A stretch of DNA of 64,000 nucleotides. Source: Candidatus Dojkabacteria bacterium. Its GTDB lineage: Bacteria; Patescibacteriota; Dojkabacteria; J137. Location: the NCBI GenBank assembly GCA_030950485.1, contig JAUZRK010000021.1, positions 5,498 to 69,497 on the forward strand. Reading direction: 5' to 3'. Shown piece after piece: positions 39,522-59,700 of the stretch (the first letter of the stretch is position 1; each line of letters opens with the position of its first letter). Under the pieces are notes generated by a model that worked only from the letters and a program-made list of their open reading frames with translations, was not told the origin of the DNA and did not search any database. A program made the translations under genes and the position numbers.

Positions 39522-40484
39522 ATGTTTGGAATTTTAAGTACAATTTTTTACGAGCCGTTATACAACGCGTTAGTCATTTTTTATCACGCCTTGGGTGATA
39601 ATCTAGGGCTTGCAATTATTTCTGTAGCTATTGTTACTAGGACTCTTATGACTCCTATGACGATTAAACAGATTAAGTTGGCTGAAATGAATAGAGAGTT
39701 TTCAGAGAAAGTAAAAGAACTGAAAAGAAAATATAAGGATGATAAAGAGAGACAGCAAAAAGAAATAATGCAGATTAATTCGCAATATTTACCAGCGCAG
39801 CTAGGAGGATGTTTACCAATGATTTTTCAAGTAGTATTCTTTATATATGCCTACAGAGTTATTAGAGATATTGTTAATACTGGAGGATTAGGATTTAACA
39901 AAGTTGCTTATAGCTTTGTTGATAAATTTCCTAGTGATTACAAAATGGATGGAAATTTTTTTGGTATTTTTGATGCTATAAAATCCCCTGCACAAGCATT
40001 TGGAGATCATGGATTTGGCGTTAAATTCTTACCATACATTATCTTAATTGTAGCTGTTGGAATTTCTCAGTACATGTCTATGAAGATTCTTTCTGCAATA
40101 AGAAAGAGTAGAAAACCAGAGAAAGTAGAAAAGAAGAAAAAAGAAGATGAAAAAGAAGATTTCTCAGAAATTATGCAAAGATCAACAAAGCAAACAATGA
40201 TGTTAATGCCTCTGATGATAATGTTCTTTTCATATAATTTACCATCAGCATTGGCTTTATACTGGATTACACAAAGTAGCTTTGTTGTAGTACAACAGTC
40301 ACTAATTGCAAAAATTAGAGGAGATTTAGATCCAGAAGGTAGCAAAACAGTTAAGAGTAACTCATCAGAAACTGAAGTAATAGAGGCTGATAGCATGTTA
40401 CTTCATGAAACAGATGACTTGAAAAAACGTTTACAAAAAAAGAAAAGACAGAAGAAAAATAAGAAGAAACGACAAACTAAATAA
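39522..40484 (+). CDS. yidC: Membrane protein insertase YidC (short monoderm Oxa1/SpoIIIJ type) with a lysine-rich C-terminal tail
   Basis: YidC/Oxa1 core (GLAIISVAIVTRTLMTPMTIKQ...YLPAQLGGCLPMIFQVVFF) and a C-terminal KKRLQKKKRQKKNKKKRQTK tail. Confidence 0.85.
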   Translation: MFGILSTIFYEPLYNALVIFYHALGDNLGLAIISVAIVTRTLMTPMTIKQIKLAEMNREFSEKVKELKRKYKDDKERQQKEIMQINSQYLPAQLGGCLPMIFQVVFFIYAYRVIRDIVNTGGLGFNKVAYSFVDKFPSDYKMDGNFFGIFDAIKSPAQAFGDHGFGVKFLPYIILIVAVGISQYMSMKILSAIRKSRKPEKVEKKKKEDEKEDFSEIMQRSTKQTMMLMPLMIMFFSYNLPSALALYWITQSSFVVVQQSLIAKIRGDLDPEGSKTVKSNSSETEVIEADSMLLHETDDLKKRLQKKKRQKKNKKKRQTK

Positions 40485-40555
40485 AAAAGATTCAAAATCT
40501 CGAATTATGAGTTTTAAATTCATAATTCGTAATTTTTAATTTTTAATTAACAGAG

Positions 40556-41194
40556 ATGAAGCTCTCAGTACAAAATAGAGAAATAACCGGAAAAAAGGTG
40601 AAGCATCTAAGAGGACAAGATATTATCCCAGCTTCTGTTTTCGGTCCAGGCTTCGAGCCAAGAAATGTTCAAGTTAATAGAAAAGAACTAGCTAAAATTT
40701 TTAAAGAAGCAAGTTACAATAAGTTTATCGATCTTGAATTAGAGGGAGATAAAGTGTTTAAGGCTTTGATTAAAGATGTACAGATTCACCCTGTAAGAGA
40801 TTACTTTATATCAGCCGCATTTTATAAAGTTGATGAAAGTAGAAAGATTTCTGTAGATGTACCTATTAACTATGTAGGAACTTCACCTGCAGAAAAGAAT
40901 AAATTAGGATTCGTAGTATATCAATTCGATACAATTAACCTATATTGTTTACCAAAAGATCTTCCAAACAGTGTAGAGGTAGACCTAAGTACTCTAACAG
41001 AAGGAGGTTCAGTTATTACAGCTGCAGATCTTAAATTACCTGAAGGAGTAGAATTTGACAGTAACGTTGGAGATCCTAGTGCATCAGCATTAGTATATGT
41101 AGCAACTGCTCAAAAGACAGTAGAGACTGATGAAGAATCAGCTGAAGAAGAAGGAAATAGTGAAGAATCTAAAGAAGAAGAATCTGCAGAGTAA
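40556..41194 (+). CDS. rplY: Ribosomal protein L25 / general stress protein Ctc
   Basis: L25/Ctc N-terminal beta-barrel region (REITGKKVKHLRGQDIIPASVFG...), a C-terminal domain, and an acidic tail. Confidence 0.8.
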   Translation: MKLSVQNREITGKKVKHLRGQDIIPASVFGPGFEPRNVQVNRKELAKIFKEASYNKFIDLELEGDKVFKALIKDVQIHPVRDYFISAAFYKVDESRKISVDVPINYVGTSPAEKNKLGFVVYQFDTINLYCLPKDLPNSVEVDLSTLTEGGSVITAADLKLPEGVEFDSNVGDPSASALVYVATAQKTVETDEESAEEEGNSEESKEEESAE

Positions 41195-41332: not shown

Positions 41333-44300
41333 ATGACTCTGGCAACTGAAAAGTTGAATAGGCAAAGAGGTATTAAGTTTTACTTAAGCGCCATATTCAT
41401 ATTGGCGTTCCTCTTTACGTTATTACTATTATTCTCTGGTGAAGGATCTTCGTCAGGTTCAAATTTTGGTAATTCAAATTCAAAGAATGATTTAGCGGTT
41501 ACTGATTTCGGTGACTTTGTTTTGACGAGCTCGCAGTTGAGTGATGGAAGCATTTCAAGGGCTAAAATTTTAAACGGATCTGTAACACTAGATAAACTGG
41601 CAAAAGATACGATTATACAATATCCCGATGGGAAGACTGGCCCTGTAAATGTTAGTAATAAATCAATTTTAGAATGGCATCTTGCAGATGGCTCGGTAAG
41701 TACAGCCAAAATCTTAGATTCTGCAATTACTACAGCTAAACTTGCAGATGGCTCAATAACTGAAATTAAAATAATAGATGGTGCAATATCTTCAGGAAAA
41801 ATTAGAGATGGAAGTATTCTTGCAATTGATCTTTCAAATGGAAGCATTATTACTGCAAAAATTGCAGATGGTGCTATTACTGAGTCGAAAATAGCTAGTA
41901 ATTCAATTAGCACAGATAAACTTCAAAATGGATCAGTAACACTAGATAAATTAGCCCCAGGTGTACTAGATGGTATAACTATAAATAATGATTCATTAAA
42001 TGGAGATGTTTTAATTGATAATTCCGTTAACGGTTCAAAAATAGAAGATAACTCAATTACTGGCGATAAAATTGAAAATAATTCAGTTACGGGGGATGAC
42101 ATTCAGGATAATTCAATTACGGGAGATGATATTCAAGACAACTCAGTTACAAATCTTGATCTTGCAGATGGTTCTGTCACAGGTGTTAAATTGGCAGACA
42201 ACTCAATAAATGGGGCTAAGTTAACTAACTTATCTATAACTGCTGCAAAGATAGCACTAGGAACAATAGCAGGAGCTCAAGTAGCAAGTGATGGAAGTGT
42301 AGTTAAATCTATAATAGGAGGAGGAGGTATACAAGTTACTAATAATAATAATGGTAGCTATTCTCTAAAGCTCATAACTACTTGTTCTGATGGACAGGTA
42401 TTATCATGGAATAGTGCTGGTACGGATTGGGTCTGTACAACACCTCCAGGAGGAGCTGGTCTTTCAGACACAGATGATTTAGCAGAAGGTACGTTAAATC
42501 TATACTATACAACTACAAGATTCAATACAGACTTTAACTCTAAAGATACTGATGAATTAACAGAAGGAACAACAAACCTTTATTATACAGAAGCAAGATT
42601 TGATTCCTCACTTGGTGGAAAAACACTAGACGACATAACAGAAGGGACAACAAATAAATTTTATACAGAAACAGCATTTGATAATTCATTTAGTAATAAA
42701 GATAGTGATGATCTTACAGAAGGAGCTTCAAATCTTTTCTGGACACAAAGTAGATTTGATATAGCTTTTGGACTAAAAGACACAGACGACCTAGCAGAAG
42801 GAGCAACAAACCTATACTATACAGAAACAAGATTTGATAACTCATTCGCAGGAAAGTCATTAGACGATTTAGCGGAAGGAGTTACAAATAAATTCTATAC
42901 AGAAACAGCATTCGATAATTCGTTGAGCGGTAAGACAACAACAGATGTAGCAGAGGGAACAAACTTATACTATACAGAAGAAAGAGCACAAGACGGAGTA
43001 GGAACAGCATTAACAGATACAACAGAAATAAACTTTACATATAACGATGCAGGAAATGCAATTACAGCAGATTTAATAGATGGATCAATAGCAGAATCTA
43101 GATTAGATGTATTAAATGCACCAACAGACACATATTCATTAACATGGAATCAAGGATCAGGAAAAATGGAATGGGTAAATGTAAGTGGAGGAGGAGCAAC
43201 AACATTTAATAGTTTATCAGATACAAACTTAACAGCAGTAGCACAAGGAGACGTACTATATTATGATGGAACAGACTGGGTAAATTTAGCAGCAGGAACA
43301 AGTGGACAATTCTTACAAACCGCTGGAGTGGGTGCAAATCCAACTTGGGCTAATATTAGTGGATCTCTTGCTAGCGGAACTCTTTCAGGAAATACTTTAG
43401 AATGGAATGGAGTTGCCTGGGTAGAAAGCTCAGCATTAACAAATGACGGAACAGATGTAGCTACGAGTGGACAATTTAGTTCAAATGGAAATACAATAAT
43501 CGGAAGTGACGCAGCAGATACATTATTAATAAACGCAATACTACAAGGATCAAATCCATTAGTATTTGAAGGAGCAACAACAAATGCATTTACAACAACA
43601 TTAGCAATAACAGATCCAACAGCAAATAATACAATAACATTACCAGATAGTTCAGGAACACTAGTTCTAACTTCTGATTTAACAGGATTAGCAGCAACAA
43701 CTGATTTCGATACAGAAACAGAACTAGAAGGATTACTAACAGATGTAACAAACATATATACAAATAACGACGGAAACCTAAATGATGACGATCTATCAGA
43801 TAACGATACTGGAGATTTAGCAGAAGGAACAAATCTATACTTTACAAACGAAAGAGTAGATGACCAGGTAGCATTATTAGTACAAAATGGAACAGGAATT
43901 TCATGGGCATATGATGATGGAGCAAATACATTTACACCAACAATAAGTTTAAGTGCATTCGATACAGATAATTTAGCTGAAGGAGCTACAAACTTCTATT
44001 GGAGCGATACAAGATTTGATAACGCTCTTGCATTAAAGGACACAGACGATCTAGCAGAAGGGTTAACAAATCTATACTATACAGAGACAAGATTCGACAA
44101 TTCATTCGCAGGAAAATCATTAGACGATTTAGCGGAAGGAGTTACAAATAAATTCTACACAGAAACAGCATTCGATAATTCATTATCAGGAAAAACACTA
44201 GACGATATAACTGAAGGAATAACAAACCTATACTTTACAAACGAAAGAGTAGACGACCAAGTAGCCTTGTTAATAAAAGATGGACTAGGAATAAATTGGA

Positions 44301-47014
44301 CATACGATGATAGATTAGGCACATTAACAGGAGTAGTAGATTTTACAGACTTCGATACAGATAACTTAGCAGGAAAGATACTAGACGATATAACTGAAGG
44401 AATAACTAATAAATTCTATACAGAAACAGCATTTGATAATAGCTTGTCAGGTAAAACAACAACAGATGTAGCAGAAGGAACAAATCTATACTTTACAGAC
44501 GAAAGAGCACAAGACGGAGTAGGAACAGCATTAACAGATACAACAGAAATAAACTTTACATATAACGATGCAGGAAATGCAATTACCGCTGATTTAATAG
44601 ATGGGACAATAGCAGAAACTAGGTTAGCCGTTCTAAACGGACCTGCTGATGGACAAATTTTAAGTTGGAACCAAGGATCAGCGCAGATGGAATGGATCAA
44701 TAATAGTGGAGGAAGTTCTACATTTAGTGCTTTATCAGATACAAACCTAACAGCAGTAGCACAAGGAGACGTACTGTATTATGACGGAACAGATTGGGTA
44801 AACTTAGCAGCAGGAACAAGCGGACAATTCTTACAAACACAGGGAACAGGTGCTAATCCAATTTGGGCTACAAGTCCAGGTGCTCTTGCAAATGGTACAC
44901 TAGCTAATAATACTTTAAGATGGAACGGTTCAGCTTGGGTTGAAAGCTCAGCTTTAACTAATAATGGTACTGATATAACAGTAAGTGGGCAACTTAATGC
45001 TAATGGAAATACTATAATTGGTGATGCAAATACAGATACTGTAACATTTAATTCAATTCTACAAGGAGCAATCCCACTAGTATTTGAAGGATCTACAAGT
45101 AATACATTCGAAACAAGTTTATCAGTAACAGATCCAACAGCAGATAGAACAATAACATTACCAGATGCTGATGGTACTGTAGCGTTAACATCAGATTTAA
45201 CTGGTTTAGCTGCTACAACTGATTTTGATACTGAGGCAGAGTTAGAAGGATTATTAACAGATGTAACAAATGTATATACTAACAATGATGGAAATTTAAA
45301 TGACGATGACCTTTCAAATAATAGTACAAGTGATCTAGCAGAAGGAACAAATCTATACTTTACAGATGAAAGAGTTGATGACAGGGTTTCAGTTGTAGTA
45401 CAAAACGGAACTGGAATTTCATGGTCATACAATGATGGGGCAAATACATTTACACCAACAATATCACTAGCTGCATTCAGTACAGATAATTTAGCTGAAG
45501 GAGCTACAAATTTATATTACACTGGCGCAAGATTTAATTCTGACTTAGCTACAAAGACAACAACAGATCTAACAGAAGGAACAAACCAATACTTTACAGA
45601 TGAAAGAGTAGACGATAGAGTAGCTACACTTGTACAAAATGGAACAGGAATTACATGGTCATACAATGATGGAGCAAATATATTTACACCAACAATTACT
45701 CTAGGAACAAGCATTGATAGTTCAGAAATCGTCGATGGTACTATTGTAAATGCAGATGTAAACGCAGCTGCTGGAATAGTAGAAAGTAAATTAGCACTAA
45801 ATTTCCCAACACATACTAATGCAAATGATCCAACAGCTGCTCAGAAAGCAAAGCTTGTTGAATTAGTTGATGCAGCAGATACTAATATAGCAATAGGTAA
45901 TAAGAATATTTCTAATATACATACACAAAACACAGATACAGGAACTACAGCTACTAGCTTTCAAATAAATTCAGGAGCAAGCGGTCCTAGATTGAAAAAT
46001 AGTACAGGTACACTTCAAGTAAGAAATGCAGCAGATAGCGGATTCGCTAATTTACAAGCTGCAGATATTCAAGGAGGAAACTTAAATCTAACCGGAAATG
46101 TAGATTTTGATGGAGTATTATTAGCAGGTTCTACTGGCGTTCAATTAACAAACGCAGTTGGTAAAATCCAGGCTATTTCATCAACATATTTTGCAGACTT
46201 ATCAGGAGCTAACTTAACAGGACTTAATGCAACTCAGCTATTATCAGGTACAGTCCCATCCGCAAGATTAAGTGGAAGCTATACAGGAATTACAGGACTT
46301 GGAACAGTAACTACAGGAGTTTGGAACGGTACTAGAGTAGATATTTCAGATTATACAAATTTAGCAGCAGGAACAAATCTAACACTTGTAAACGATACTT
46401 TAAATGTTAATGATGCATTCTTAACAAATACAGGAAATGATTCTACAACAGGGATACTAACAGCAGCAGGATTCGTATCAACACCTACAGGATCAGCACC
46501 AATCTCTCCAACAGCGGGACAAGTTTATTACAATTCGTTAGATAGTAATATGTATGTTTACGATGGGACTCAGTGGGTAGATCTAACAGTACAGTCTGCT
46601 GGAGGTGGAGGAGCAGCTTCAATGGTTCACTATGCTGAGGCAGATGCTCAGCAAACAAATGCTACACTAACAATGACACCTGCTCTTAGTACGACATTTA
46701 CGCCAACAACAACAGGTAATTACCTTATCGAGTATACATATGAAATTAGTAATTCAAGTTCATCTAAATTAAGTCTTTCTAATGTAGATTATTGTACTGG
46801 TACTGTAGCATGTCCTGGAGGAGGAACTATAATAGCAAATCATACACAGTCAGCTTTTGGCTCTGTTAGTTACTCTATGGTCTCAGGTTTCAAGCGAGTT
46901 TCTTTAACTGGTGCTCAGCCATACAATGTAGATGTAAGTCACAGAACAGAGGTGACAGCTGGAGGAGCTACTTCATACATTCAAAATGTAAGAGTAATTG
47001 TTTGGAAGCTATAG
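41333..47014 (+). CDS. Giant (1893 aa) membrane-anchored fibrous surface protein built of short tandem repeats, with phage-tail-fibre-like character
   Basis: N-terminal TM segment. About 25 copies of an ~11-aa repeat (e.g. DGSITEIKIIDGAISSGKIRDGSILAIDLSNGSIITAKIADG). More than 20 copies of a ~19-aa repeat (TDDLAEGxTNLYYTExRFDxSxxGK). Gly/Thr/Asn-rich beta-rich segments. Internal ~1.5-kb tandem duplication. Confidence 0.7.
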   Translation: MTLATEKLNRQRGIKFYLSAIFILAFLFTLLLLFSGEGSSSGSNFGNSNSKNDLAVTDFGDFVLTSSQLSDGSISRAKILNGSVTLDKLAKDTIIQYPDGKTGPVNVSNKSILEWHLADGSVSTAKILDSAITTAKLADGSITEIKIIDGAISSGKIRDGSILAIDLSNGSIITAKIADGAITESKIASNSISTDKLQNGSVTLDKLAPGVLDGITINNDSLNGDVLIDNSVNGSKIEDNSITGDKIENNSVTGDDIQDNSITGDDIQDNSVTNLDLADGSVTGVKLADNSINGAKLTNLSITAAKIALGTIAGAQVASDGSVVKSIIGGGGIQVTNNNNGSYSLKLITTCSDGQVLSWNSAGTDWVCTTPPGGAGLSDTDDLAEGTLNLYYTTTRFNTDFNSKDTDELTEGTTNLYYTEARFDSSLGGKTLDDITEGTTNKFYTETAFDNSFSNKDSDDLTEGASNLFWTQSRFDIAFGLKDTDDLAEGATNLYYTETRFDNSFAGKSLDDLAEGVTNKFYTETAFDNSLSGKTTTDVAEGTNLYYTEERAQDGVGTALTDTTEINFTYNDAGNAITADLIDGSIAESRLDVLNAPTDTYSLTWNQGSGKMEWVNVSGGGATTFNSLSDTNLTAVAQGDVLYYDGTDWVNLAAGTSGQFLQTAGVGANPTWANISGSLASGTLSGNTLEWNGVAWVESSALTNDGTDVATSGQFSSNGNTIIGSDAADTLLINAILQGSNPLVFEGATTNAFTTTLAITDPTANNTITLPDSSGTLVLTSDLTGLAATTDFDTETELEGLLTDVTNIYTNNDGNLNDDDLSDNDTGDLAEGTNLYFTNERVDDQVALLVQNGTGISWAYDDGANTFTPTISLSAFDTDNLAEGATNFYWSDTRFDNALALKDTDDLAEGLTNLYYTETRFDNSFAGKSLDDLAEGVTNKFYTETAFDNSLSGKTLDDITEGITNLYFTNERVDDQVALLIKDGLGINWTYDDRLGTLTGVVDFTDFDTDNLAGKILDDITEGITNKFYTETAFDNSLSGKTTTDVAEGTNLYFTDERAQDGVGTALTDTTEINFTYNDAGNAITADLIDGTIAETRLAVLNGPADGQILSWNQGSAQMEWINNSGGSSTFSALSDTNLTAVAQGDVLYYDGTDWVNLAAGTSGQFLQTQGTGANPIWATSPGALANGTLANNTLRWNGSAWVESSALTNNGTDITVSGQLNANGNTIIGDANTDTVTFNSILQGAIPLVFEGSTSNTFETSLSVTDPTADRTITLPDADGTVALTSDLTGLAATTDFDTEAELEGLLTDVTNVYTNNDGNLNDDDLSNNSTSDLAEGTNLYFTDERVDDRVSVVVQNGTGISWSYNDGANTFTPTISLAAFSTDNLAEGATNLYYTGARFNSDLATKTTTDLTEGTNQYFTDERVDDRVATLVQNGTGITWSYNDGANIFTPTITLGTSIDSSEIVDGTIVNADVNAAAGIVESKLALNFPTHTNANDPTAAQKAKLVELVDAADTNIAIGNKNISNIHTQNTDTGTTATSFQINSGASGPRLKNSTGTLQVRNAADSGFANLQAADIQGGNLNLTGNVDFDGVLLAGSTGVQLTNAVGKIQAISSTYFADLSGANLTGLNATQLLSGTVPSARLSGSYTGITGLGTVTTGVWNGTRVDISDYTNLAAGTNLTLVNDTLNVNDAFLTNTGNDSTTGILTAAGFVSTPTGSAPISPTAGQVYYNSLDSNMYVYDGTQWVDLTVQSAGGGGAASMVHYAEADAQQTNATLTMTPALSTTFTPTTTGNYLIEYTYEISNSSSSKLSLSNVDYCTGTVACPGGGTIIANHTQSAFGSVSYSMVSGFKRVSLTGAQPYNVDVSHRTEVTAGGATSYIQNVRVIVWKL

Positions 47015-47082
47015 AAACTCCTTTACAAATATAACTAAATTATCTAAACTTTTTTATAGTTAATATTTATTAAAATTTAAAA

Positions 47083-47538
47083 ATGGCAAAACTTAAAGGA
47101 CTGGACGATAAGTCATCAATGAATTCAATGGTATCAGGAGAAACTATTAAAATGATTTTATTCTTTTTAATAGCTGTGTTTACATTAACAATAACTATCT
47201 TTAGAGATAATCTAGCCCCTATTTCAAATGACGATCTATATAGTTCAGATTACCAAGCTGTATTTCTTACAAATGGACAAGTTTATTTCGGAGATGTTAC
47301 TGATGAAAGATCTGATGTAGTTATCCTAGAAGATATTTATTATCTACAAATAAATAAAAATATTCAGTCACAAGATCCAAATGAAGCAGCAACTGAAGTT
47401 CCTGATATTAGTTTAATAAAATTAGGAGAAGAGTTACACGGGCCAGAAGATCAAATGATTATAAATAAAGAGCAAGTTCTATTCATTGAGAATCTTAAAT
47501 CTGATTCAGACGTAGTAAAAGCAATTCAGTCAAACTAA
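47083..47538 (+). CDS. Hypothetical protein with an N-terminal TM anchor
   Basis: TM helix (MILFFLIAVFTLTITIF) followed by a soluble domain. Confidence 0.4.
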   Translation: MAKLKGLDDKSSMNSMVSGETIKMILFFLIAVFTLTITIFRDNLAPISNDDLYSSDYQAVFLTNGQVYFGDVTDERSDVVILEDIYYLQINKNIQSQDPNEAATEVPDISLIKLGEELHGPEDQMIINKEQVLFIENLKSDSDVVKAIQSN

Positions 47539-47559: not shown

Positions 47560-48762
47560 ATGGAGGGGAATAATTTACAAAATAATAGTGTTATTCAGCC
47601 TTCATCTAATGCTTCGGATCTAAGCTCACAAGTAAAAGACGAAATCTCAATATTAGAAAGAAAGCTAGATAATTCTGATCTTCCTCCAGATTTAATGGAG
47701 AAAGCTAGAGCAATGATCATAAGGCTTAAAAAAATGTCTATTGGAGGCAGTTATTCAAATGAATATGAACCTGTATCTGAATACATTAACTGGATAATAC
47801 AGCTTCCTTGGGATATATATACAAAAGATAATCTTGATATGGCTCATGCTAAAGAAAGTCTAAGTAAATATCATTACGGATTAGATCCTGTAAAAAATAG
47901 AATTTTAGAATATCTAGCAGTAATTCACCTTCAAGCTATGAATAATAAAGCTAAGGCTGAAGAGCTTGCTGCTCAGGGTGGTACAGCAGAATCAAATTCT
48001 GATAAGATGAAAAAGCTTACAGGTAATTCATCTAATGCTCCAATTCTTTGTTTTGTTGGAATTCAAGGTGTTGGTAAAACATCGTTAGCAAAATCAATCG
48101 CAATAGCATTGAATAGAGGTTTTATGAGAATACCTTTAGGAGGGCTTGGTGGAGTTGCAGAAATTAGAGGACGAGCAAGAGGAACTATTGATCCTGAACC
48201 TGGACAAATTATAAAGGCTTTAATAAGGACTGGATCGATGAATCCATTAATATTGCTGGACGAAATAGATAAAGTTAGTAGTGATACTGGTTTACGAGCA
48301 GATGTAATGGCTGCATTACTAGAAATCCTAGATCCAGAACAGAATTCTACTTTTATTGATAAGTATTTAGATTATCCTGTTGATCTTTCAAAGTGCATGT
48401 TTATAACAACTGCGAATAATCTTGGGGGTATTTCAGCAGCACTTCTAGATAGGTTAGAGGTTATTAGATTTGGTAGTTATAATGATAATGAAAAAATGAC
48501 TATAGCTAAAGATTATCTATTACCTAAAGTTAGAAAAGCTACTGGTTTAACAAAAGAACAACTTGATTTTGCACCTGATGTTTGGCCATTAGTAATAAGG
48601 CCTTTAGGTTTTGACGCAGGAGTAAGACAATTAGAAAGAACTTTAACAGATCTTGCTAGAAAGGTCGCTTTAAAAATAGTCCAAGGAGTTACAGATGGTG
48701 TAAAAGTAACTAAAGAAAACTTCCGTGAATTTATACCCGAAGATATCGGTATATACTCTTAA
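47560..48762 (+). CDS. Lon-type AAA+ ATPase module lacking both the N-terminal LON domain and the S16 protease domain
   Basis: High similarity to the Lon ATPase (YINWIIQLPW, HYGLDPVKNRILEYLAV, ILCFVGIQGVGKTSLAKSIA, LLDEIDK, DPEQNSTFIDKYLDYPVDLSKCMFITTAN, LLDRLEVIRFGSY, GVRQLER). The ORF stops where the protease domain would begin. Confidence 0.75.
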   Translation: MEGNNLQNNSVIQPSSNASDLSSQVKDEISILERKLDNSDLPPDLMEKARAMIIRLKKMSIGGSYSNEYEPVSEYINWIIQLPWDIYTKDNLDMAHAKESLSKYHYGLDPVKNRILEYLAVIHLQAMNNKAKAEELAAQGGTAESNSDKMKKLTGNSSNAPILCFVGIQGVGKTSLAKSIAIALNRGFMRIPLGGLGGVAEIRGRARGTIDPEPGQIIKALIRTGSMNPLILLDEIDKVSSDTGLRADVMAALLEILDPEQNSTFIDKYLDYPVDLSKCMFITTANNLGGISAALLDRLEVIRFGSYNDNEKMTIAKDYLLPKVRKATGLTKEQLDFAPDVWPLVIRPLGFDAGVRQLERTLTDLARKVALKIVQGVTDGVKVTKENFREFIPEDIGIYS

Positions 48763-48818
48763 AACATTAGCTTTCCAGAAAAATTTATCCTATTATATAG
48801 TAGGGGAAATGTATATTC

Positions 48819-49382
48819 ATGAAAATAGTTCTAATAGATGATGATCTAATAATTAGGGAAGCCGTTAAATCAGCTTTTAGTATCCTTGAAGATACTTTAA
48901 GTTTTTCTCTTGACGTCTATACAGCAGAGAATGGAGCAGAAGGCCTAGGTTTAGTTTATGTTACAAAAGCGGATGTAATTGTTATCGATCTTACTCTTCC
49001 TAAATATAGTGGAAAAGAAGTCCTTGAATACATTATAAATAATCACGGCCTTAACCCAAAGACAAAGCAAATAATTCTTCTTCATGAAAATGATGATTAC
49101 GCAAGCTTTAGATCCCCTAAAAATATTTCCCTTATTAATAAATCTAAAAACGACTTTACTATAAAGCTTGTTAACAGCATTACAACTTTTTACCATTTAG
49201 AAGGTAAGAAATTTTCATCAATACAAAAAATAAAACTTAGATTAGTAAATAGAGTAATCATATGGGGGAACTATTTAGATATCGTTAGTAAGAGGTTATT
49301 TACTGGAGGTTTATTTATGAAGATAGTTTTCCTGATCCCTTGGATTGTAATTCAAATTATGGGGGGATGTATCTTACATTAA
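48819..49382 (+). CDS. Stand-alone receiver (REC) domain protein; the annotated C-terminus probably over-extends into the next gene
   Basis: IVLIDDD...DVIVIDLTLPKYSGKEVLEYI has a CheY-like fold signature. No output domain. Confidence 0.5.
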   Translation: MKIVLIDDDLIIREAVKSAFSILEDTLSFSLDVYTAENGAEGLGLVYVTKADVIVIDLTLPKYSGKEVLEYIINNHGLNPKTKQIILLHENDDYASFRSPKNISLINKSKNDFTIKLVNSITTFYHLEGKKFSSIQKIKLRLVNRVIIWGNYLDIVSKRLFTGGLFMKIVFLIPWIVIQIMGGCILH

Positions 49383-50542
49383 TGTATTTAGTAAATGGTA
49401 AGGTTAAAGAAATAAATATAGATCAGCAAAAGAAAGACGATATTAAACTTAGAGCAAAGACCTATCCTGTACTTGGAGGTATTGGAGCTGGAATAATGCT
49501 ACTTTTAATTCAAGTTGGTCTTATAGTTCTAGGTGGATTCACTATAGGTAAAAATTCGCTAACAGATACTTTAGCAGTTTCAGAAGGAATTGAAATTAAC
49601 TTTTCAAAGGATGATGCGATAGAGTATAAATTGAATAATATTGGTCTAATGGATAATGGGGCGATCTTACTTAATGATATAGACTTATATGTTGAAGAAG
49701 AAACTATAACTCCTGAAGTTATTAAATTACCTATAGAGGATGCTGAAATTATTCAGCCAACATCTTACAGTGATGTTTTAGAAATTGAAGAGGAGGTAAA
49801 TGATCTAATAATATTTGATGATGAATTAGAAATTACTAATCCAATTGAAGATACCACTTTAGAATCAGATTTAGATTCCGAAGAAATAGTGATTGAGAAT
49901 CTTGATTTACCTGTGGAACAGAAAGAAGAAGCTATAATACCTGACGAAGAACAAGTTTCACAAGACTTAATTGAAAATAAGGCAGAGGTACTTGGTGTTA
50001 GAACTAGTGAAACACGAGTAGGTAGCATTCAGCTATTAAATCCTATCGAATACAAATACATAATAAGCGTAGCTGAGATTGGAAGTAAACCAGAAAATAC
50101 TGAAATTAAATATCAGATTAGTAATGATGGGTTAAGTTGGTATTATAATTGGGAAGGATTATGGGTAGAAACATTTGATGATGAATTTAATTCAAATACA
50201 ATTGAAGATCTAAATTTAAATTTAGAATCATTCGAAAAAACAGGAGAGATTTATTTTAGAATTTATCTAATAGGTAATAGTAACTCTAGTCCTATTCTTG
50301 AGAAATTAGTAATACAAGGAGATTTTGACAGTATTCTAGATATAGAGATTCCAACTAGTAGTCCTATAGATCTCGAATCAACAGATGAATTAATAGAAGA
50401 AAATATTTCTAATATAAATATTGATGAATCATTAAGAAATATTGAAACAAAAATTTACAATGCAAGTTTTTATAACGGTGAAAAAGTTGTTAGAGGTAAG
50501 GTAACTGATCTATCAGATAATCTTATAGGAGTGAATTATTAG
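49340..50542 (+). CDS. Membrane-anchored acidic protein; possibly the N-terminal portion of the downstream giant CSLREA gene
   Basis: TM helix (VLGGIGAGIMLLLIQVGLIVLGGF) then an acidic Glu/Asp/Ile-rich linker. The downstream 50543..50708 has no independent gene. Confidence 0.4.
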   Translation: MDCNSNYGGMYLTLMYLVNGKVKEINIDQQKKDDIKLRAKTYPVLGGIGAGIMLLLIQVGLIVLGGFTIGKNSLTDTLAVSEGIEINFSKDDAIEYKLNNIGLMDNGAILLNDIDLYVEEETITPEVIKLPIEDAEIIQPTSYSDVLEIEEEVNDLIIFDDELEITNPIEDTTLESDLDSEEIVIENLDLPVEQKEEAIIPDEEQVSQDLIENKAEVLGVRTSETRVGSIQLLNPIEYKYIISVAEIGSKPENTEIKYQISNDGLSWYYNWEGLWVETFDDEFNSNTIEDLNLNLESFEKTGEIYFRIYLIGNSNSSPILEKLVIQGDFDSILDIEIPTSSPIDLESTDELIEENISNINIDESLRNIETKIYNASFYNGEKVVRGKVTDLSDNLIGVNY

Positions 50543-50708
50543 CTAACTTAGCTAATTATGAAGTTGTAATAGAATATCCAACCGGAGAGCTTATTGGTAA
50601 GACCGAGCTATATTTGAATAAAAAAAAGAGATAGAATTTACTTTAAGAACTCCAAATAGAGCTGGTGGATATGTTCGAGCATATCTAGTAAATAAAGATG
50701 ACTCAAGT

Positions 50709-53700
50709 TTGAGATCATCTACTTCTGAAAGTAAAGAGAATTCAACATTTACAGTAGACTCAACTCTAGATAATTCAGACTCTGGAATAGATGGATTATG
50801 TGATGATGGGTTAGGTAATTGTACTTTAAGAGCTGCTATTCAAGAAGCAAATGGATTAGGTGGATCAGATAATATTAATTTTGATATACCTGATACGGAT
50901 CCAGGATATGTAGATTACGATGGAGGAGCAGGAGATTCGTTAGATGGAGACGATTATTGGAGTATAGCTCCAAATACAGTTCTACCTGTAATTACAGATG
51001 TTGTCGTAGTAGATGGATCAACACAGAAAGCAAATCAATCTGATACAAATACATTTGGACCGGAGATACAGATTTCTGGAATAAATTATATAAATAATAC
51101 AGGTAATGGACTTTCATTCGTAGGAATCACAGGAAGTGGTTCAATAGTAAATGAGTTAAATATAATAAACTTTGGACGAGCGATTTACATATCTAGTTAC
51201 GACTTAACAGTAACTAATTCATATTTAAATCCAGACGCAAAGGGATTATCGTACGATTCAGATGAGAATCAAGTTACAGGGGTTTACGCGGTCAGCGATG
51301 CTATAAATCAGATAAATACATTGAACATTGGATTAGAAAATGAGGGTAATGCGATGATGAGTGAGTTGGGATTTGGTGTTTGGCTAGAGGCAGGTACATC
51401 TCCAACAGAAGTTCAAGTAAATGTAATGGGTAATAAATTTGGACTGGATCCGACTGGAACAATAGCAACAGATATAAGCACACAGCATCACTTGCATATT
51501 ACTGGAAATGTAAGTGTATTAGTTGGTGAAGCTGGAATTGGTAATAGAAACTATTTTGCGAATAGTAATGTACATTTATTAATATCAGGTGATAGTGTAA
51601 GTAATACAATAGAAATATATAACAACTTTTTTAATACAGATATTAATGGTACGGGACACTTCCCGGCTAGCGGATCAGCATTAAGCTTAGGAGGACAAGG
51701 GGGAACTACTGTAGGAGCCCCCGGAAAAGGTAATTTAATACAGACTCATACTTCAGAAGTTGTTATGGGTGTGGGTGCTAACTCAGGTACGACTACTGTT
51801 CAGAATAATACTATATTTGCATCAGTTGGAATTAGGTTAAAGGGACCCAATAAAATATTTAGAAATAATTTTGTAGCATCAGAAAGTACAAAATCTGATC
51901 CTTATTTCGGAGTAACTAATTCAGGGATAATTATCGATGCAGGTGGATGGAGCGGGCGAGCGATTGAGCTTTTTTCAGCTGATCCAGATGACGAATTACT
52001 ACTAACAGGTAATTATTTTGACGGGCACAACAGTATAATGGAACCTTATGATCCAAATACACATATAACCATCGGAGGACAAGGAGTAGATGCAAATTCA
52101 CTATGTATGGGATTAGAGAAGAATTGTTTTAGTAATGTAGGTAATACTACAATTATAACTAGAGATAGAGCAGCAGGATTTAACTTAGGGGGAACATATC
52201 CTGTAAATTATTCAACAATAGAATTAGATAATGAAATAATATACGATATTGGCGCAACAAAAGTACCTCTTATTGTTGTGGGTCTTGAAGGAACATACGA
52301 GTTATTCTCAGGAGATCAGAGGAGGACAGATCTTACTGACGGCTCAATTTCAATACCTATACTTAATTCTGATTATGTTACTGATATTTGGGATCTTTAT
52401 ACATATATTACAGAAATTCAAAATAGCAAAGTTGATTGTACGGATCCTCTAGATTGCCCTGGCTCCAATGGTGAAAATGAAAAAACAGTTATATTTACAC
52501 CGCCAAGTGCAGTAGGAATTGCAGATATTACTTATCCGGGAGTACAAATACCTATGTTAGTAGTAGATGAGAACGGGGATAAATTTATTGGATCTCCAAG
52601 ACTAGGCGATCTTGAAACTGGTCATTTTACTATGTTGGAGCCATTTAGTTTTGATGGATTTACAACAGATACTCCAAGTATAGATAACGGAGAACCTTGG
52701 AGTACAAGTCCGACTGCTAGTGGAACACTTAGCCCACTTACTACACCTGTAAATTACTACTATTTAATATTCCGACAAGTGACTCTGGTTATGTAGATTA
52801 TAATGGAGGAGCAGGAGAATCATTAGATGGAGACGACTATTGGAGTATTCGGCCAGTAACTCAGTTACCTACTTTAACTAGTTCAATAAATATAGATGGT
52901 TCATCTCAATCATCAAATCAGGGAAATTTAAATATATTTGGACCAGAAATCGAGATTCAAGATGGAGCGAACATTTCAAATGGATTGGTAATTACTGGAG
53001 ATACAATTAATATTGATAACATTGTTATTAATAGTTTTACGGGCCAAATAGACATTGATGGATCCGACGGAGTCGAGATAACAAATAACTACATTGGACT
53101 AGATACAAAAGCTAAATATCTTTCTGCCTTTGCTAATGGAATAGATATTCATGGCGAATCAAATAACATAATAATTGGAAATGATATTACAGATGGAAAT
53201 ATATTTGGAGGATCAGTAAATGACGCTTACGCTAATATAAATATTACGAGTACTGATAATGGTGTATTTGAGAAATATGTATCTATAAGAGGAAATTATA
53301 TCGGAATCGATCCTGTTGGGAATATTATTGGTAATAATACTGTAGACGGTATTGAGCTAAAAGGTGTTTATGGAACTTCAGTTGATATAGGTGGTCCTGA
53401 CCCATCTCATCGTAATATTATTTCTTCAACTGGAGGACATGAAGCTATAATATTAGACCTACTGGAGTTTTAGCTTCTAATTTAAATCCAGTTATAAATA
53501 TTAAGAATAACTATTTATGTACAGATGAAAATGGTAACTCTAAAAATATTAATTATATTTGTAACATAGGAATTTATATTTCCGCACCTAATATTTATCC
53601 ATATGAAGATAATAATTATCTAGACCATATAGACTTAAATATAGGGGGGGCTTAGGAGAAGGTAATGTCTTTGGAAATACTTATGGAGCAATCTACTGGG

Positions 53701-56700
53701 ATATATCACTAGGCGCAGAGGTTTCATACAATACATTTTTAAACTCAGTCTATGGTTACGGTATAAATGCTACAGCTTTTAGAATAATATCCAACTTTGC
53801 TGATATTCAAATATTAAATAATTTTTTTGGAGTCACTTTATTAGATCCATATTTTGGGAAAGGATCGTATCCAGATATAGGAAGTTTAAGTGCGATTCCA
53901 ATGGGCTCATATAGTACAACTATAAAGGGAAATGTATTCTCTTTAGTTAATGTAGGAGTAGAGGCTAATAGTTATATAAAAAATGATACTTCAACATTTC
54001 ATACTCCACTTGTAACGATCGGAGGTACAGGAGTCTTAGCAGATTCACTTTGTGGTGATTTATATGGTCTTGGTAATGTAGAACAAAACTGCTTTATTGA
54101 TTCTACGTATATAGGTGAATTTAGAAATATGTTACCAGAAAATGAGTCTACTTACTTAACTAGTGATAACTATTTTGAGGTAAATGGAGATATTAATACT
54201 GTATTATCTACTGAACTAAAGGCGGTAAAATATATATGGTCTACAAGATTGGAATTAGTAACTGGCACTAAAAGGCGTACTGATTTAGCAGATGGGGTTA
54301 TTACTTTTGATGAATTTTTCGGTGATTACTTTATCTATAATGATGACGTAGGAGTTCCAGACCCAGGGGTAGAGTTTAGAACATTACAAAATATAACCAC
54401 AGATTGTACAGTGTCATTAGATGACTGTAACGGAGTTGATGGAATTCTAAATAAATCATCATTCTTATACAACACTAATGGGTTGCTATGGTTAAACGGA
54501 CAATTAATTTCTAAAGATGTATTGCAAGATAGAACTATTCTAGATAGAAGTGATTTGGCTTTCGATGGAAATCATATTGCATCAAAAAACTTTAGTCTAG
54601 ATGGTAATAGTCTCACTGATCCAGCTACAGATGATTTTGGAGCTATCTGGACGTTTGATGATACAGCTACAGGAGGTATAGCAACGGCTGACTACGGCCA
54701 TATTCAAACATTACAAATACAAGTAGTAGACGCGAATCCGATCTGGAATGGATCAGAATGGGTAATAACCGTAGATTCAACAAGTGATGAAGATAATGTT
54801 TCAATAAGTGGTTATGAGCAAGACCCAGGAGTAGCATATTCAGGCGGAGGTCAAGAAGTAGTAGACGGACTTTCATATGGAAAAACCAGTTTAAGAGAAG
54901 CAATAATAGTAGCTAATAACTTTGCAAATCCAGTAACGATTAAATTTGATATTCCAACAACAGACCCAGGTTATATTAATCCTGATGGAAGTAGAACATC
55001 AACTGCAGAGCCTGCAGGTACTTATACAGCAACAACCTCAGGTTATTGGTACACATAGTAGATGCAAGTCCCACTCACTACATTATAGACAAAAACGAAA
55101 GCTTAACTATAGATGGTTACTCACAGCCAGGTACAAGTCGAAATACTGCATCAATTGGCCAGCCATTTAATGCAAAGCTAGGGATTCAATTAAATCTTTA
55201 TACAATAACTATAAATAATGCTAATGACCTACACATCACTGGATTAAATATTCAAGGTCACGATAATGCAATTAGATACGATAGTGTTGATACAACTCCT
55301 CCTATTAATGATATTTGGCTCGAAGGAAATTACTTTGGTACAAATATTGACGGTTCTAACCTGGCAGTTGCAGGTTATAGTTCATCAGGAGGAATTAGGT
55401 TTACACAAGAAATGTACGGGTTTGTCATTGGTACTAATGGAGATGGTGTAAATGACGCTGGAGAGTTTAATATTATAAGTGGTCAGAATCAGCCGATTAG
55501 TGGGTTAATTACAATATATTCATTTGACCCAATTACAGATGTCAGAATTTCGGGAAATTATATACATACTGACTATACTGGAGAAGTTTGCTCGGATTGA
55601 TGGAGCGATATTTGGAAGTAATCTAGATGGTATATCTGATGACAATGAATCAAATGTATTCGGATGTATTGATACTAACTATAGGTCTTTTATCCGAGCT
55701 TACAATTTGAATAATTCGATAATAGCGAATAACTATATGGGAGTTTCTCCAAATGGTACAAATATAATGAATAAAGCTTTTGGGTCAAACTATACATTAG
55801 ATATTCAAAATACGGACAATCTTAGAGTAGAGAACAATATTATTAATTCTTATAACTCTACTGACTTAGGATCTATATATATTAGAAATGGAAATATAAA
55901 TTTACAGATAGTAGACAATGCTGTATTAGGTGGTACAGTAGGATTATCAGGTGCAACTACTGGAGCATTAATAAAAGGGAATATTTTTGAAGGATATACA
56001 GATAAAGCTATAGTTTTAACTGATGATAGTGATGGAATTACATTAGAAGAGAATACTTTTGAGAGATCTAGTTCAGTTGGTAAAGTAATTCATTTAGGAG
56101 CATTTATAGCTGATGATTTATTAAGTACTCCAAACGATCCTAATGATACAGATATTGGGGTTAATGAATTAATGAATTAATGAATTGGCCAATAATCTAC
56201 AGTGTAAATTATTTAGGTTCAGATCAATTTGAGATCAAAGGATATTTAGATGGTAATCCTTTAGAGGCTCCTTTTGATATTGAGATTTGTGAAAGTGAAG
56301 ATAATATCTCAGGGCATGGGGGTTGTACTCAAAGTTTAGATAAATTCAGTATAGTTACAGATGGAGAGTGGTCTAGAGTAGTAACATTTACTGGAGCAGT
56401 TGGAGATGAAATATTCAGTGCATTAGCAACTAATAATAATGGCTCTACATCAGAATTTGGAAATTATGTAGATACAAAACCTGAAAATATTGGAGGAAAT
56501 TGGGTAATTACAGTAAACAGTACGTCAGACGAAGACAACGTAAGTACTAATTTATATAATTGCGAGGGAGTAGTGGCACAATGCGGTGGATTTGAAGGTC
56601 CTGATGGAAAGGCAAATGGGTTGACTAGTTTGAGAGAGGCAATAATAGTTGCTAATAACTTTGCAAATCCAGTAACGATTGAATTTGATATTCCAACAAC

Positions 56701-59700
56701 AGACCCAGGTTATATTAATCCTGATGGAAGTAGAACATCAACTGCAGAGCCTGCAGGTACTTATACTTCAAAAGATAATGGATATTTTTACGTTAATATA
56801 GCCAATGGAGACTTAACTGTAACAAATTCTATTACTATAAATGGATATACACAAATAGGAAGCACAGTGAATACTAACGTATTTGGAGAGAATTTAAATA
56901 GTAATCTTATGATTCAACTTAATTTAAATTCTTACTTAATAAAATTAAATTCAAATGATAATAAATTATTAGGTTTAAATTTATATCGAAAAAATAGTCC
57001 AGTTGTACTGCAATTAAACTCTTCATCAGATAATTATATTCAGGGAAATATTTCCGGGGGGAATATAACTGGTGAATTTGCAGAAGGGACAGGTTCTATA
57101 CAAGTCTGTGGTAATTCAAATGGTAATGTAATAGGTACTGATGGAGATGGTATAAATGACGCAGGTGAAAGAAATTTAATAATCAGCAATGAAGACCTTG
57201 CAATAATTGGTAATTCCGAAGGTTTAATATACTTTCAAGGAACTCAATCGAATAATGTTATAGCGGGTAATTATATAGGAGTAGACAGATCTGGTAATAC
57301 TTGTGCAGCTGGTAATTTTTATCGGATGGCAGTTCACTCATTTTCAGGAACAAAAACTAACTTTAGAGTTGGTACAGATTTAAATGGAATTAGTGATTCT
57401 GAGGAATCCAATATAATTGGTTGTGTAAGTGAAGGAACAAGGCTAGTGGGACTAACATTACTAGTACCTATATCTGTCTTTAGCATCATTAACTGGCAAG
57501 ATAGCACTATAATTGGAAATTATATTGGAACAACTCCAAATAACGATATTCTTAAAGCAGATTTTCCAAGATCCTTAATGCTTATACAATCTACATCATC
57601 CTCAAATCTAAATATTAGAGATAATACTTTTGCATATAACTTAGGCGAGGGGATAGTAGTATCTAACAATGATGTATCACTAACTTTCTTTCAAAATAGA
57701 ATCTACTCAGTTACAGGTTTGAACATTGATTTAGGCGGGGCATCGCAGAGTATTGGGGATGGAGTAACAGCAAATGACTCGGGTGATATAGATGCAGGCC
57801 CAAATGATTCAATGAACTATCCAATAATAACAAGTATTCGATATATAGGATCAGATCAATTTGAAATAGAAGGAACATTGGATGGAAATATATTAGAAGC
57901 ACCATATGAAATAGAAATATGTGAAAGCGATGATCACCCTTCGGGACATGGAGGATGTATACAAGCATTAGATACATTTACATTAAATACACCTGGAGAA
58001 TGGGATAGGACAGTCACATTAACAGGAGCAATTGGAAATGAGAAATTTAGTACATTGGCTACTAATTCGAATGGATCAACAAGTGAATTCGGAGAAACAA
58101 TAATAACAGATGCAAATCCATATTATGATGGAAGTAAATGGACAATAACTGTAGATAGTACAAGTGATGAGGATAATGTAAGTACATCAGGAAGTGATGA
58201 TGGAGATGGAGCATATTCAGGAGGAGGATTAACAGGTATAGATGGGAATGCAGACGGGAAGACTTCTTTAAGAGAAGCAATAATAGTAGCTAATAATTTT
58301 GCTAATCCTGTGACTATTGAGTTTAATATTCCTACTAGTGATCCTGGTTGGAATACAATTGAATTTCCAAATGCATTTAAAATAAGTTTCACTGGAGCAG
58401 CACTTGAGTTAAACAGTGAAAGTACAATTATAGATGGAAAATCACAAACTAACTTTACTGGTGACACTTCACAAGTAATATTAGAACCTGAAAGTATGCC
58501 TGTTATAGGAAATGCAACTAGGGGGCCAGAGATCAACATTTATTTCAGCTTGAATACAATTTCAGCACCACTTAGATTAAATGCAGCAGATATAACAATC
58601 GATTCTATGGGTTTTTATAATAATCCAATCAATTTAAGGCGGCCACTTACCCTATACGACCAAGCAATAAATGCAACAATCAGAAACAGTGACTTTGTAA
58701 ATAACGAAGGAGGCATTTTTGTAGCACCTGGAAATAATGGACTTACATTACAAAGTAGTGTGATAAGAAATAACGCAGAGTATGATTATCGATTTGATGG
58801 TATTGAAAGCGAGTTTAGTGGTGCATTGATAGAAGATAATCAGTTTGTTTCAAATGGTGGAGCGGCTATAGGGTCACAACAGACGGTCACTCAGGGAGAA
58901 GGAGCAATTATTAGAAACAATTTGATAAAAGCTAATGGGTTTAATCCAACTTTACAAGGCCCAGGAACAGCGATAGCGCCTTCTCCACCTGGACCTCCAG
59001 CTATAACAATGAATAATATTCAAATTTATGGGAATTCAATTGTAGGTAATTCTAGATTTGGAATCCTTGTCTCATCTGGAGTTCAAGGTATAACCTTACA
59101 AGGAAACAAAATCTATGGTTCTAGTGAATCAGATCTAGAAATTACAAATAGTCTCATGGACTTTAATGTCTTAGATGGAGATGGAATTAATATAAACGAC
59201 CCAGGTGATGCAGACACGGGAACAAACGACCTAATGAATTCACCAGTAATTGAAAATATAATATATAGAAGTGTTGATAAAACATACATAATAAGTGGAG
59301 ACTTAGATAATGAGGTAGTCGGAGAGGGACCAAAAATTATAGAAATTTGTGTGAGTCAAAATACTCTAAGTGGGAACTGTCTAGAAAGTGTAGGGCTAAC
59401 TTTAAGCAACAGTCCATGGGAGATAGAAGTACAAGTTAGCGGTAGTTATGGGAATCCAGCAGATCTGATGTTTAGCGCTTTAGCGACAAACGCATTAGGA
59501 TCTACAAGTGAGTTCAGTAGCATACATGCAGTAGATGTTATTCAAACTCCTGTAACAGGATCTCTACAATATGATATAACACTAGTCTCTCCTATAAATA
59601 ATGCTCAGCTAATAAATCAATTAACTCCAACTTTAGACTGGAACCCAAGTAGTGATCCAGAACTAGTTATATACAGAATTTATCTTGATGGGGTTTTTAT

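Follow-up and report, generated by a model that had tools for sequence, protein, structure and literature searches.

The gene at 47560..48762 on the plus strand of the window (the whole 64 kb stretch of Dojkabacteria DNA that was analysed) codes for a Lon-type protein, here called Lon-AAA, which is composed of a LonA-type pre-AAA helical bundle, an AAA+ domain, and the Lon lid. The ORF extends from an ATG to a TAA stop codon, codes for 400 aa, and is present in the window exactly as described in an earlier note. As judged from sequence relationships, the gene is intact and belongs to a clade of LonA descendants which is specific for the candidate phyla radiation (CPR) and which has retained only the motor of Lon. 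Lon-AAA is a LonA derivative by homology, yet it has neither the N domain nor the P domain and also lacks the pore-loop Tyr, all three of which are defining features of LonA. The protein is probably a neofunctionalised Lon-derived ATPase and probably not a canonical threading unfoldase.

Domain architecture of Lon-AAA

A Pfam search of the 400 aa revealed the domains AAA (residues 163-303, E 6e-18) and Lon_lid (residues 326-376, E 3e-10) and detected neither LON_substr_bdg (PF02190) nor Lon_C. NCBIfam model TIGR00763 (endopeptidase La) is matched from position 249 to 572 of 795 (E 2e-106). The score of 357 bits is below the cutoff of 608 bits, in keeping with a match restricted to the middle part of Lon. 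At E<=0.01, only LonA models were matched and none of the LonB or LonC models. The top relatives in PDB (E about 1e-69 to 1e-75) are all of the LonA type: human LONP1, B. subtilis LonA, and the Lon proteins from E. coli, Yersinia, Thermus, and Meiothermus. At E<=1e-3, the PDB matches are LonA and, weakly, ClpB/Hsp101, with no LonB or LonC chains among them. The LonA structures align to residues 55-126 and 157-394 of Lon-AAA, which are separated by a family-specific insertion, and structure-based alignments to E. coli Lon, B. subtilis LonA, and human LONP1 show 36-41% sequence identity. Residues 295-307 read LLDRLEVIRFGSY.

In canonical LonA, 230-261 residues precede the point which aligns with residue 20 of Lon-AAA. 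In Lon-AAA, the helical region is preceded by no more than about 19 residues. The LonA-specific pre-AAA helical region (NTD3H / HI(CC)) is represented by its C-terminal part only; it begins at about position 249 of TIGR00763 and appears to correspond roughly to NTD3H plus one preceding helix (domain names after PMC9569914). At the other end, homology stops at ...ENFREFI, opposite the ...YLG of LonA which belongs to the first strand of the P-domain, and only 8 residues remain.

A structure was predicted with AlphaFold2 from a 47-sequence family alignment (mean pLDDT 82, pTM 0.74). The model shows five N-terminal helices (residues 18-37, 43-62, 65-81, 94-104, and 109-138), an alpha/beta AAA+ core, and the lid, and it superposes on LONP1 with a TM score of 0.77 across about 380 columns. 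Disorder is confined to residues 1-19 and 142-158, and the last 10 residues have a mean pLDDT of 64. The N-terminus differs in length and composition between family members, some of which carry low-complexity extensions. The linker between the helical region and the core has grown to about 130 aa in P0122 and is about 16 residues shorter in Microgenomates.

The earlier note had described a Lon homolog reduced to its AAA+ module, devoid of the LON N-domain and of the S16 peptidase, and this is upheld consistently by Pfam, TIGR00763, PDB, and our HMM searches (see below). That the protein aligns with Lon from the pre-AAA helices through the alpha-subdomain, as claimed there, is evident from the LonA matches in PDB and from the AlphaFold2 superposition, and its end does coincide with the junction to the protease domain. 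The positions of the various features are listed in Table 1.

Table 1. Features of the Lon-AAA gene and of its surroundings in the window.
Feature	Position	Strand	Basis or remark
Gene for protease-less Lon-derived AAA+ ATPase, complete	47560..48762	+	400 aa + TAA stop
Variable N-terminus, residues 1-19, predicted disordered	47560..47616	+	AlphaFold2 pLDDT below 50; family alignment
LonA-type pre-AAA helical region, residues 18-138	47611..47973	+	TIGR00763, PDB, AlphaFold2
Family-specific variable linker/insertion, residues 127-158, from helical region to beta-1	47938..48033	+	disordered in model
Walker A GIQGVGKT, residues 167-174	48058..48081	+	G167, G170, G172, K173, T174 invariant
Pore-loop 1 RGRARGTIDPEPGQ, residues 203-216	48166..48207	+	family alignment
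Walker B ILLDEIDK, residues 231-238	48250..48273	+	family alignment
Sensor-1 N286 to Arg finger R298, TANNLGGISAALLDR	48415..48453	+	both invariant in 120/120 listed homologues
Lon lid (alpha) subdomain, residues 306-380, with sensor-2 R356 in GFDAGVRQLER	48475..48699	+	Pfam, alignment
C-terminal stub and tail NFREFIPEDIGIYS, residues 387-400	48718..48759	+	alignment
Conserved upstream anchors yidC (39522-40484) and rplY/L25-Ctc (40556-41194)	39522..41194	+	synteny
Insert specific to this genome, flanked by rplY and the Lon-AAA gene	41333..47538	+	outside conserved unit
Downstream block specific to this genome: REC-only protein plus various large proteins without Pfam matches	48819..60934	+	synteny
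Restart of conserved synteny downstream	61010-61591, then PilM/FtsA-like gene 61808-63031	- (61010-61591)	synteny

Distribution and phylogeny of the protease-less family

Homologues from Dojkabacteria make up at least 120 clusters with 56-74% sequence identity and a length of 353-520 aa; the set used here consists of the best 120 listed from a search of 5.8 billion protein clusters. All 120 listed homologues have the AAA and Lon_lid domains without S16, and those which carry an organism name are without exception from Candidatus Dojkabacteria. Further short proteins with AAA and lid only (45-58% identity) were detected in an exhaustive search of 1.84 billion representatives. When P0148 was used as the seed, at least 119 further clusters were found (346-457 aa), with names that refer to Candidatus Gottesmanbacteria, Roizmanbacteria, Microgenomates or Patescibacteria. 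A basal CPR branch (P0150 and P0147), which occurs in genomes labelled Dojkabacteria, Saccharibacteria or Patescibacteria, is protease-less as well. The extra length of some members is due to a low-complexity tail or an expanded linker and not to degenerate Lon domains.

A distance-based neighbor-joining tree was computed from 134 AAA+ modules, which were taken from the best 150 representatives only and comprise LonA without a LonB/LonC outgroup. In this tree, all protease-less proteins form a single clade (bootstrap 191/200), which branches outside canonical LonA with a long stem and includes none of the S16-bearing proteins in the tree. Among the sampled best representatives, Chloroflexota (Ktedonobacterales) and Clostridiales provide the nearest full-length LonA. 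An origin of the clade as the split-off first AAA module (D1) of tandem-AAA Lon proteins (P0149, P0154, P0155) is not supported, as these modules are placed elsewhere. The first module of these tandem-AAA proteins is also devoid of the pore-loop Tyr.

The protease-less Lon-AAA family is conserved, and it is hitherto undescribed in the searchable literature, where we found no paper that joins Dojkabacteria, Patescibacteria or the candidate phyla radiation with Lon and no mention of a Lon-like ATPase without a protease.

The gene is intact

The earlier note had left open whether the gene might be a product of gene decay, and had named peptidase remnants downstream or an assembly error at the ORF boundary as findings which would speak against its description. 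Profile HMMs were built from 65 S16 domains and from 70 N-regions of full-length LonA and were used to search all 2215 six-frame stop-to-stop segments of the window. No S16 or Lon-N remnant was detected (best E 4.4). There was no signal in any of the six frames in the region upstream of the Lon-AAA gene and in 48763-49400, and there is hence no pseudogene remnant downstream. The same applies to the surroundings of homologues at 13 distinct loci, about 250 kb in total (six-frame HMM search), each locus carrying exactly one Lon-AAA module.

Gene decay and assembly error are both refuted. The identical protein is encoded on two independent contigs. Dojkabacteria, Microgenomatia, and the basal CPR branch together comprise more than 240 clusters which have kept the truncated architecture and the ATPase motifs; the position of the stop is conserved as well, with 120 of the 120 listed close homologues ending at the identical residue and the Microgenomates subclade having a conserved end of its own. 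Because the stop position is conserved and the catalytic residues are invariant at such divergence, pseudogene and assembly error are excluded. That a full-length lon has become a pseudogene, has recently been truncated or was misassembled is suggested by nothing but the absence of both flanking Lon domains, and we consider this explanation extremely improbable.

Several candidates for residual Lon domains were inspected and rejected. The C-terminal extensions of P0150 and P0147 are low-complexity tails rather than a degenerate protease, and the N-terminal extensions of P0151 and P0127 are of low complexity rather than degenerate N domains; neither gave an HMM signal. The tail IPEDIGIYS, which MAFFT places on the catalytic motif IPKDGPSAG, was rejected as a relic of that motif, the resemblance being at the level of chance (z about 1.2, the score being reached by 36 of 300 shuffled sequences).

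Intact ATPase motifs and a respecified pore loop

None of the 120 listed Dojkabacteria homologues deviates in Walker A (GxxGxGK[T]), in Walker B (DE), at N286 of sensor-1, at the Arg finger R298 or at R356 of sensor-2, and all ATPase motifs are also kept in the Microgenomates subclade. Two further signatures of the clade are present in Lon-AAA: LGFD replaces YTRE before sensor-2, and F-[IL]-P replaces YLG at the end of the homologous region.

The pore is different. In essentially all sampled canonical LonA sequences, pore-loop 1 reads RGHR[RK]TY[IV]G[AS][ML]PG[RK], with TY at the respective position in nearly all of 86 proteins. The Dojkabacteria homologues have RG[IR][SP][RK]G[ENSQT][VLI][DN]AEPGQ. 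The Tyr position is occupied by Thr209 in Lon-AAA and by E/N/S/Q/T, rarely V/A/L, in the 120 listed Dojkabacteria homologues, in none of which is it aromatic. The Microgenomates have His at this position (DLRGQSR[VI]HPDAE[VP]G). Pore-loop 1 of Lon-AAA has the length which is typical of the A-type, and the clade signature [DN]AE[PV]G appears in it as the minor variant DPEPG (Pro in 3 of the 120 listed). The net charge of the loop has changed from +2.0 (range +1 to +3) in canonical LonA to about -0.7 (-2 to +1). The D/N-A-E-P-G-Q replacements are nearly invariant, which indicates that the loop has been respecified under selection and is not drifting. The pore-loop-2 region (VSSDTGLRAD), located directly after Walker B, is also devoid of an aromatic residue.

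In MtaLonA, the corresponding residues Tyr397 (pore-loop 1) and Trp431 (pore-loop 2) touch the substrate, and degradation depends on both of them (PMC8503904). As one of two alternatives, the earlier note had proposed a neofunctionalised Lon-derived unfoldase. Neofunctionalisation is in accordance with our data, while a role as unfoldase is doubtful because both of these aromatics are absent and the loop is acidic. Some deep-branching members of the clade have kept a Phe at the Tyr position, so that the loss of threading would not be clade-wide.

Proposed function

In the most likely reading, to which we assign a probability of about 0.5, Lon-AAA acts on its own as a remodelling or chaperone-type factor which uses ATP and serves specific clients. 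Lon-AAA would assemble as a Lon-like hexameric ring and would hydrolyse ATP, and since it has no proteolytic chamber of its own it would not degrade anything itself. With an acidic pore and without the Tyr/Trp by which LonA grips its substrate, it probably does not thread arbitrary polypeptides processively. The ring may instead act on particular, possibly basic, clients, which may be recruited through the helical bundle or the variable N-terminal tail. In the reduced genomes of these organisms, Lon-AAA would assume the protease-independent side of Lon function.

This reading is supported by the presence of every residue for ATP binding, hydrolysis, and inter-subunit activation (the Arg finger) and by the location of the gene among core housekeeping genes with no peptidase next to it. 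There is also a precedent in LONP1, whose chaperone-like activity depends on the ATPase and not on the protease (PMC8368198; PMC7801493). However, the N-domain of LonA recognises substrates (PMC8087443), and a 2026 preprint ascribes the chaperone-like activity of LONP1 to this domain (10.64898/2026.05.06.723147), so that its absence from Lon-AAA counts against a chaperone-type role. In addition, mechanical work on proteins may be weak without the pore-loop aromatics.

The C-terminal tail and a possible peptidase partner

The Dojkabacteria homologues end in a conserved tail, P-[ED]-[DQ]-[IFM]-G-[VI]-[Y/F/aliphatic]-[S], or …IPEDIG[VI]YS in its short form, with a shared end residue in all 120 listed. 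In this set, the penultimate residue is Tyr in 94/120 and Tyr or Phe in 103/120, it is preceded by Val or Ile in 119/120, and the last residue is Ser in 117/120. Lon-AAA itself ends in I-Y-S-COOH, and [VI]-Y-[S/A/T] is found in 94 of the 120 listed; this is HbYX-like as far as a pattern match can tell. A hydrophobic-Tyr-X pattern at the C-terminus is used by proteasomal ATPases, and ATPases of the HslU, PAN, and Mpa type dock to a peptidase ring through their C-terminal tails. The Microgenomates have a different tail, FLPxW-COOH, with Trp as the last residue in 104/120 listed.

Such tails would fit a split or modular protease, in which the AAA-only ring would serve as ATPase cap and would dock by its aromatic C-terminus to a peptidase whose gene is located elsewhere, either a free S16 domain or a ring of the HslV, proteasome or ClpP type. 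The conservation of the extreme C-terminus in Dojkabacteria (G-[VI]-[Y 94/120]-S-COOH) and, in its own form, in Microgenomates points in this direction, and the pLDDT of 64 is consistent with a flexible tail. However, a gene of the S16, ClpP or HslV type is adjacent to the Lon-AAA gene at none of the 13 distinct loci, and the flanks of about 250 kb gave no S16 signal. The tails differ between the subclades, with basal members ending in long low-complexity tails. A translocase which feeds a peptidase would also be expected to retain the pore-loop aromatics, which are lost here. We thus regard a split protease as unlikely, though it is the strongest competitor of a free-standing remodelling role.

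Genomic context

In other Dojkabacteria, yidC and rplY (L25/Ctc) are directly followed by the Lon-AAA gene, then by one or two unannotated genes and a PilM/FtsA-like gene, with groES, groEL, and clpB 6-9 kb further downstream. Among the genomes which carry the gene are the Dojkabacteria chromosome OZ246402.1 (GCA_965230975.1; 1.19 Mb) and a Gottesmanbacteria contig of 1.12 Mb with P0392. The window has kept this backbone from yidC-rplY to the PilM-like gene and carries genome-specific inserts on both flanks of the Lon-AAA gene. Upstream, these are a repeat-rich giant protein of 1893 aa and a protein of 151 aa which contains a hydrophobic segment; downstream, a REC-only protein and about 11 kb which code for large proteins without Pfam matches. 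The earlier note had placed the REC gene 57 nt after the Lon-AAA gene with no peptidase remnant in between. The latter is correct; the gap amounts to 56 nt when the first ATG (48819) is taken as the start of REC, and in the NCBI annotation REC begins at 48803. REC is located in an insert specific to this genome and is therefore not a conserved partner; since other genomes do not have it beside the Lon-AAA gene, we rejected it as a functional partner.

In Microgenomates, the gene order is nusA-infB-x-rpsO-pnp-[Lon-AAA]-(udg)-rnj-ftsK. The gene is found near ArgRS, TsaB/TsaE, GatB, and ACPS in the basal branch and beside unrelated genes in two other lineages.

This context raises the question of whether Lon-AAA might be a non-threading ATPase dedicated to complexes of the ribosome or of RNA metabolism (for example basic RNA-binding or ribosomal proteins, or components of the degradosome) rather than to general proteostasis. 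The gene is located directly 3' of rplY in Dojkabacteria; in Microgenomates it is flanked by rpsO-pnp and rnj, and members of the basal branch have ArgRS, TsaB/TsaE, and GatB nearby. An acidic pore loop would suit basic clients. However, no single neighbour is common to all subclades, and the presence of GroES/GroEL/ClpB downstream in Dojkabacteria fits proteostasis equally well. Adjacency to genes for translation and RNA metabolism is weak evidence, because such genes account for much of a small CPR genome. We consider this specialised role somewhat less probable than a split protease.

Similarly low is our confidence in a scenario for Dojkabacteria and Microgenomatia in which the ancestral lon gave rise to an ATPase without a protease, its pore acidic and devoid of aromatics, which is now the sole Lon-type protein of these cells. 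This ATPase would either be dedicated to the ATP-driven remodelling of basic proteins (ribosomal or RNA-binding) or act as a cap which docks to an as yet unrecognised peptidase via its aromatic C-terminus. If true, either role would represent a new functional class of Lon-derived AAA+ machine.

That Lon-AAA belongs to an anti-phage defence or mobile system which uses a Lon-like module is highly improbable: it could be suspected from the variable islands with giant proteins which flank the gene in the window and from a weak, partial PADLOC match to DolB (43 bits, P-loop region only), but the gene is elsewhere found as one copy per locus in conserved housekeeping synteny without such islands, and PADLOC shows no match to BrxL or another Lon-like defence family.

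Comparison with known systems

In all Lon proteases, an A domain is followed by a P domain in one chain (PMC9569914). Lon-AAA shares with LonA the pre-AAA bundle, an A-type AAA+ domain with short pore loops, the Lon lid, and the full set of motifs (Walker A/B, sensor-1, Arg finger, sensor-2). It differs by the lack of the N-terminal substrate-binding domain (about 230-260 aa), of the entire S16 Ser-Lys protease domain, and of the pore-loop-1 Tyr and the pore-loop-2 aromatic, by the acidic character of the loop, and by two novel features, the linker insertion before beta-1 and the conserved aromatic C-terminus. LonB, LonBA, and LonC have a B- or C-type AAA+ domain (with a membrane anchor or a helical-hairpin insertion and a long pore-loop 1) plus a P domain. 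Lon-AAA matches only LonA models in NCBIfam (E<=0.01), has a pore-loop 1 of A-type length, and carries no P domain. LonC from Meiothermus taiwanensis, which has no ATP-powered unfolding (PMC3391209), is also a Lon derivative in which only one of two activities is left. The two proteins mirror each other: LonC has kept the protease and has a degenerate ATPase, whereas Lon-AAA has a full set of ATPase motifs and no protease (PMC3391209).

Outside the Lon family, there are functional analogies. The FtsHi proteins of chloroplasts, which are proteolytically inactive FtsH homologues (PMC4070914), likewise represent the ATPase of an AAA+ protease that has been repurposed for a non-proteolytic task; FtsHi proteins retain the inactivated protease domain, whereas that of Lon-AAA has been deleted outright. 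ClpX without ClpP may be considered another analogy. It is naturally a separate polypeptide, in contrast to Lon, which is by definition a fused A+P chain (PMC9569914). Lon-AAA resembles HslU, PAN, and Mpa by its conserved hydrophobic-aromatic C-terminus and as a presumably hexameric, free-standing AAA+ protein. Homology is limited to the AAA+ fold, however, and the pore loops of Lon-AAA lack the aromatic residue found in these ATPases. That ClpX can act without ClpP is exemplified by yeast Mcx1.

Biological significance

Every recognised Lon subfamily (A, B, C, and BA) fuses an ATPase with a protease, and the Lon-AAA clade departs from this rule. The members of the clade are called "AAA family ATPase" in the databases, while IMG and some NCBI and UniProt records use "ATP-dependent Lon protease" or "Lon protease". 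Because of such names, metabolic reconstructions of CPR bacteria may wrongly credit these organisms with Lon proteolysis. The clade is large, ancient, and strongly conserved and thus represents a natural experiment on a lone Lon motor, which bears on protein quality control in ultra-small CPR bacteria with minimal genomes.

Gene neighborhood of the Lon-AAA gene

In comparison with the other Dojkabacteria loci, the insertion of a gene for a 1893-aa protein into the interval between rplY and the gene for the protease-less Lon homolog (Lon-AAA) is confined to the genome of the window. The 151-aa ORF directly upstream of the Lon-AAA gene is missing from that position in the other loci compared, and the entire block formed by the REC gene and the subsequent large ORFs is missing beside their Lon-AAA genes. 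The features concerned are listed in the table.

Features around the Lon-AAA gene in the window and in two other Dojkabacteria (loci L001 and L003, each in its own coordinates)
Locus	Feature	Coordinates	Strand	Size	Remark
Window	1893-aa protein gene	41333-47014	+	1893 aa	between rplY and Lon-AAA gene
Window	151-aa ORF	47083-47538	+	151 aa	ends 21 nt before Lon-AAA start
Window	REC-only response-regulator-like protein	48819-49382	+		NCBI gene call begins at 48803
Window	large-ORF block after REC gene	49340-60934		~11 kb	ORFs of 400, 695, 385, 1584 aa and others
L001	gene immediately 3' of Lon-AAA gene	11234-11674		146 aa	6-nt gap
L003	gene immediately 3' of Lon-AAA gene	11187-12509		440 aa	16-nt gap

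The 1893-aa protein, for which a Pfam search returned no match, contains repeats of two lengths: 26 residues (78 nt; type DDLAEGxTNLYYTExRFDNS…) and 10 residues (30 nt). It has the appearance of a giant, strain-variable surface protein. The 151-aa ORF has a single hydrophobic segment (…IKMILFFLIAVFTLTITIF…) and neither a Pfam nor a PADLOC match.

Downstream, the REC-only protein has a hydrophobic C-terminus and is devoid of an output domain. Pfam searches returned no match for the 400-, 695-, and 385-aa ORFs of the following block, nor for the 146-aa and 440-aa proteins encoded downstream of the Lon-AAA genes in L001 and L003. The latter two genes and the REC gene of the window are mutually dissimilar.

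Other Lon-related proteins

Eight Lon proteases from outside the window (P0121, P0123, P0124, P0126, P0131, P0149, P0154, and P0155; ~1000-1400 aa) carry two or three tandem Lon-type AAA+ and lid modules N-terminal to one S16 domain. One, P0126, comes from Candidatus Dependentiae, and in three (P0149, P0154, and P0155) the pore-loop Tyr is likewise gone from the first module. In the neighbor-joining tree of AAA+ modules from the best 150 representatives, the tandem-module proteases show no sister relation to the AAA-only clade of the CPR.

Protein P0164 (801 aa), which groups with Chloroflexota LonA, is a canonical LonA apart from its C-terminal domain. This domain has no Pfam Lon_C match at E<=1e-3 and attains just 68 bits with the S16 HMM built in this analysis; the protease domain may be divergent.

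Protease-less Lon genes are also carried by a 385 kb record named "Candidatus Bathyarchaeia archaeon" (L011; GCA_035529595.1, DATKWK010000017.1), where the surroundings show the typical bacterial nusA-infB-rpsO-pnp synteny, and by a contig of 2.7 kb (L015; SKQS01000078.1) that was assigned to a "Wenzhouxiangella sp." bin. We consider it likely that both taxon names are mislabels.
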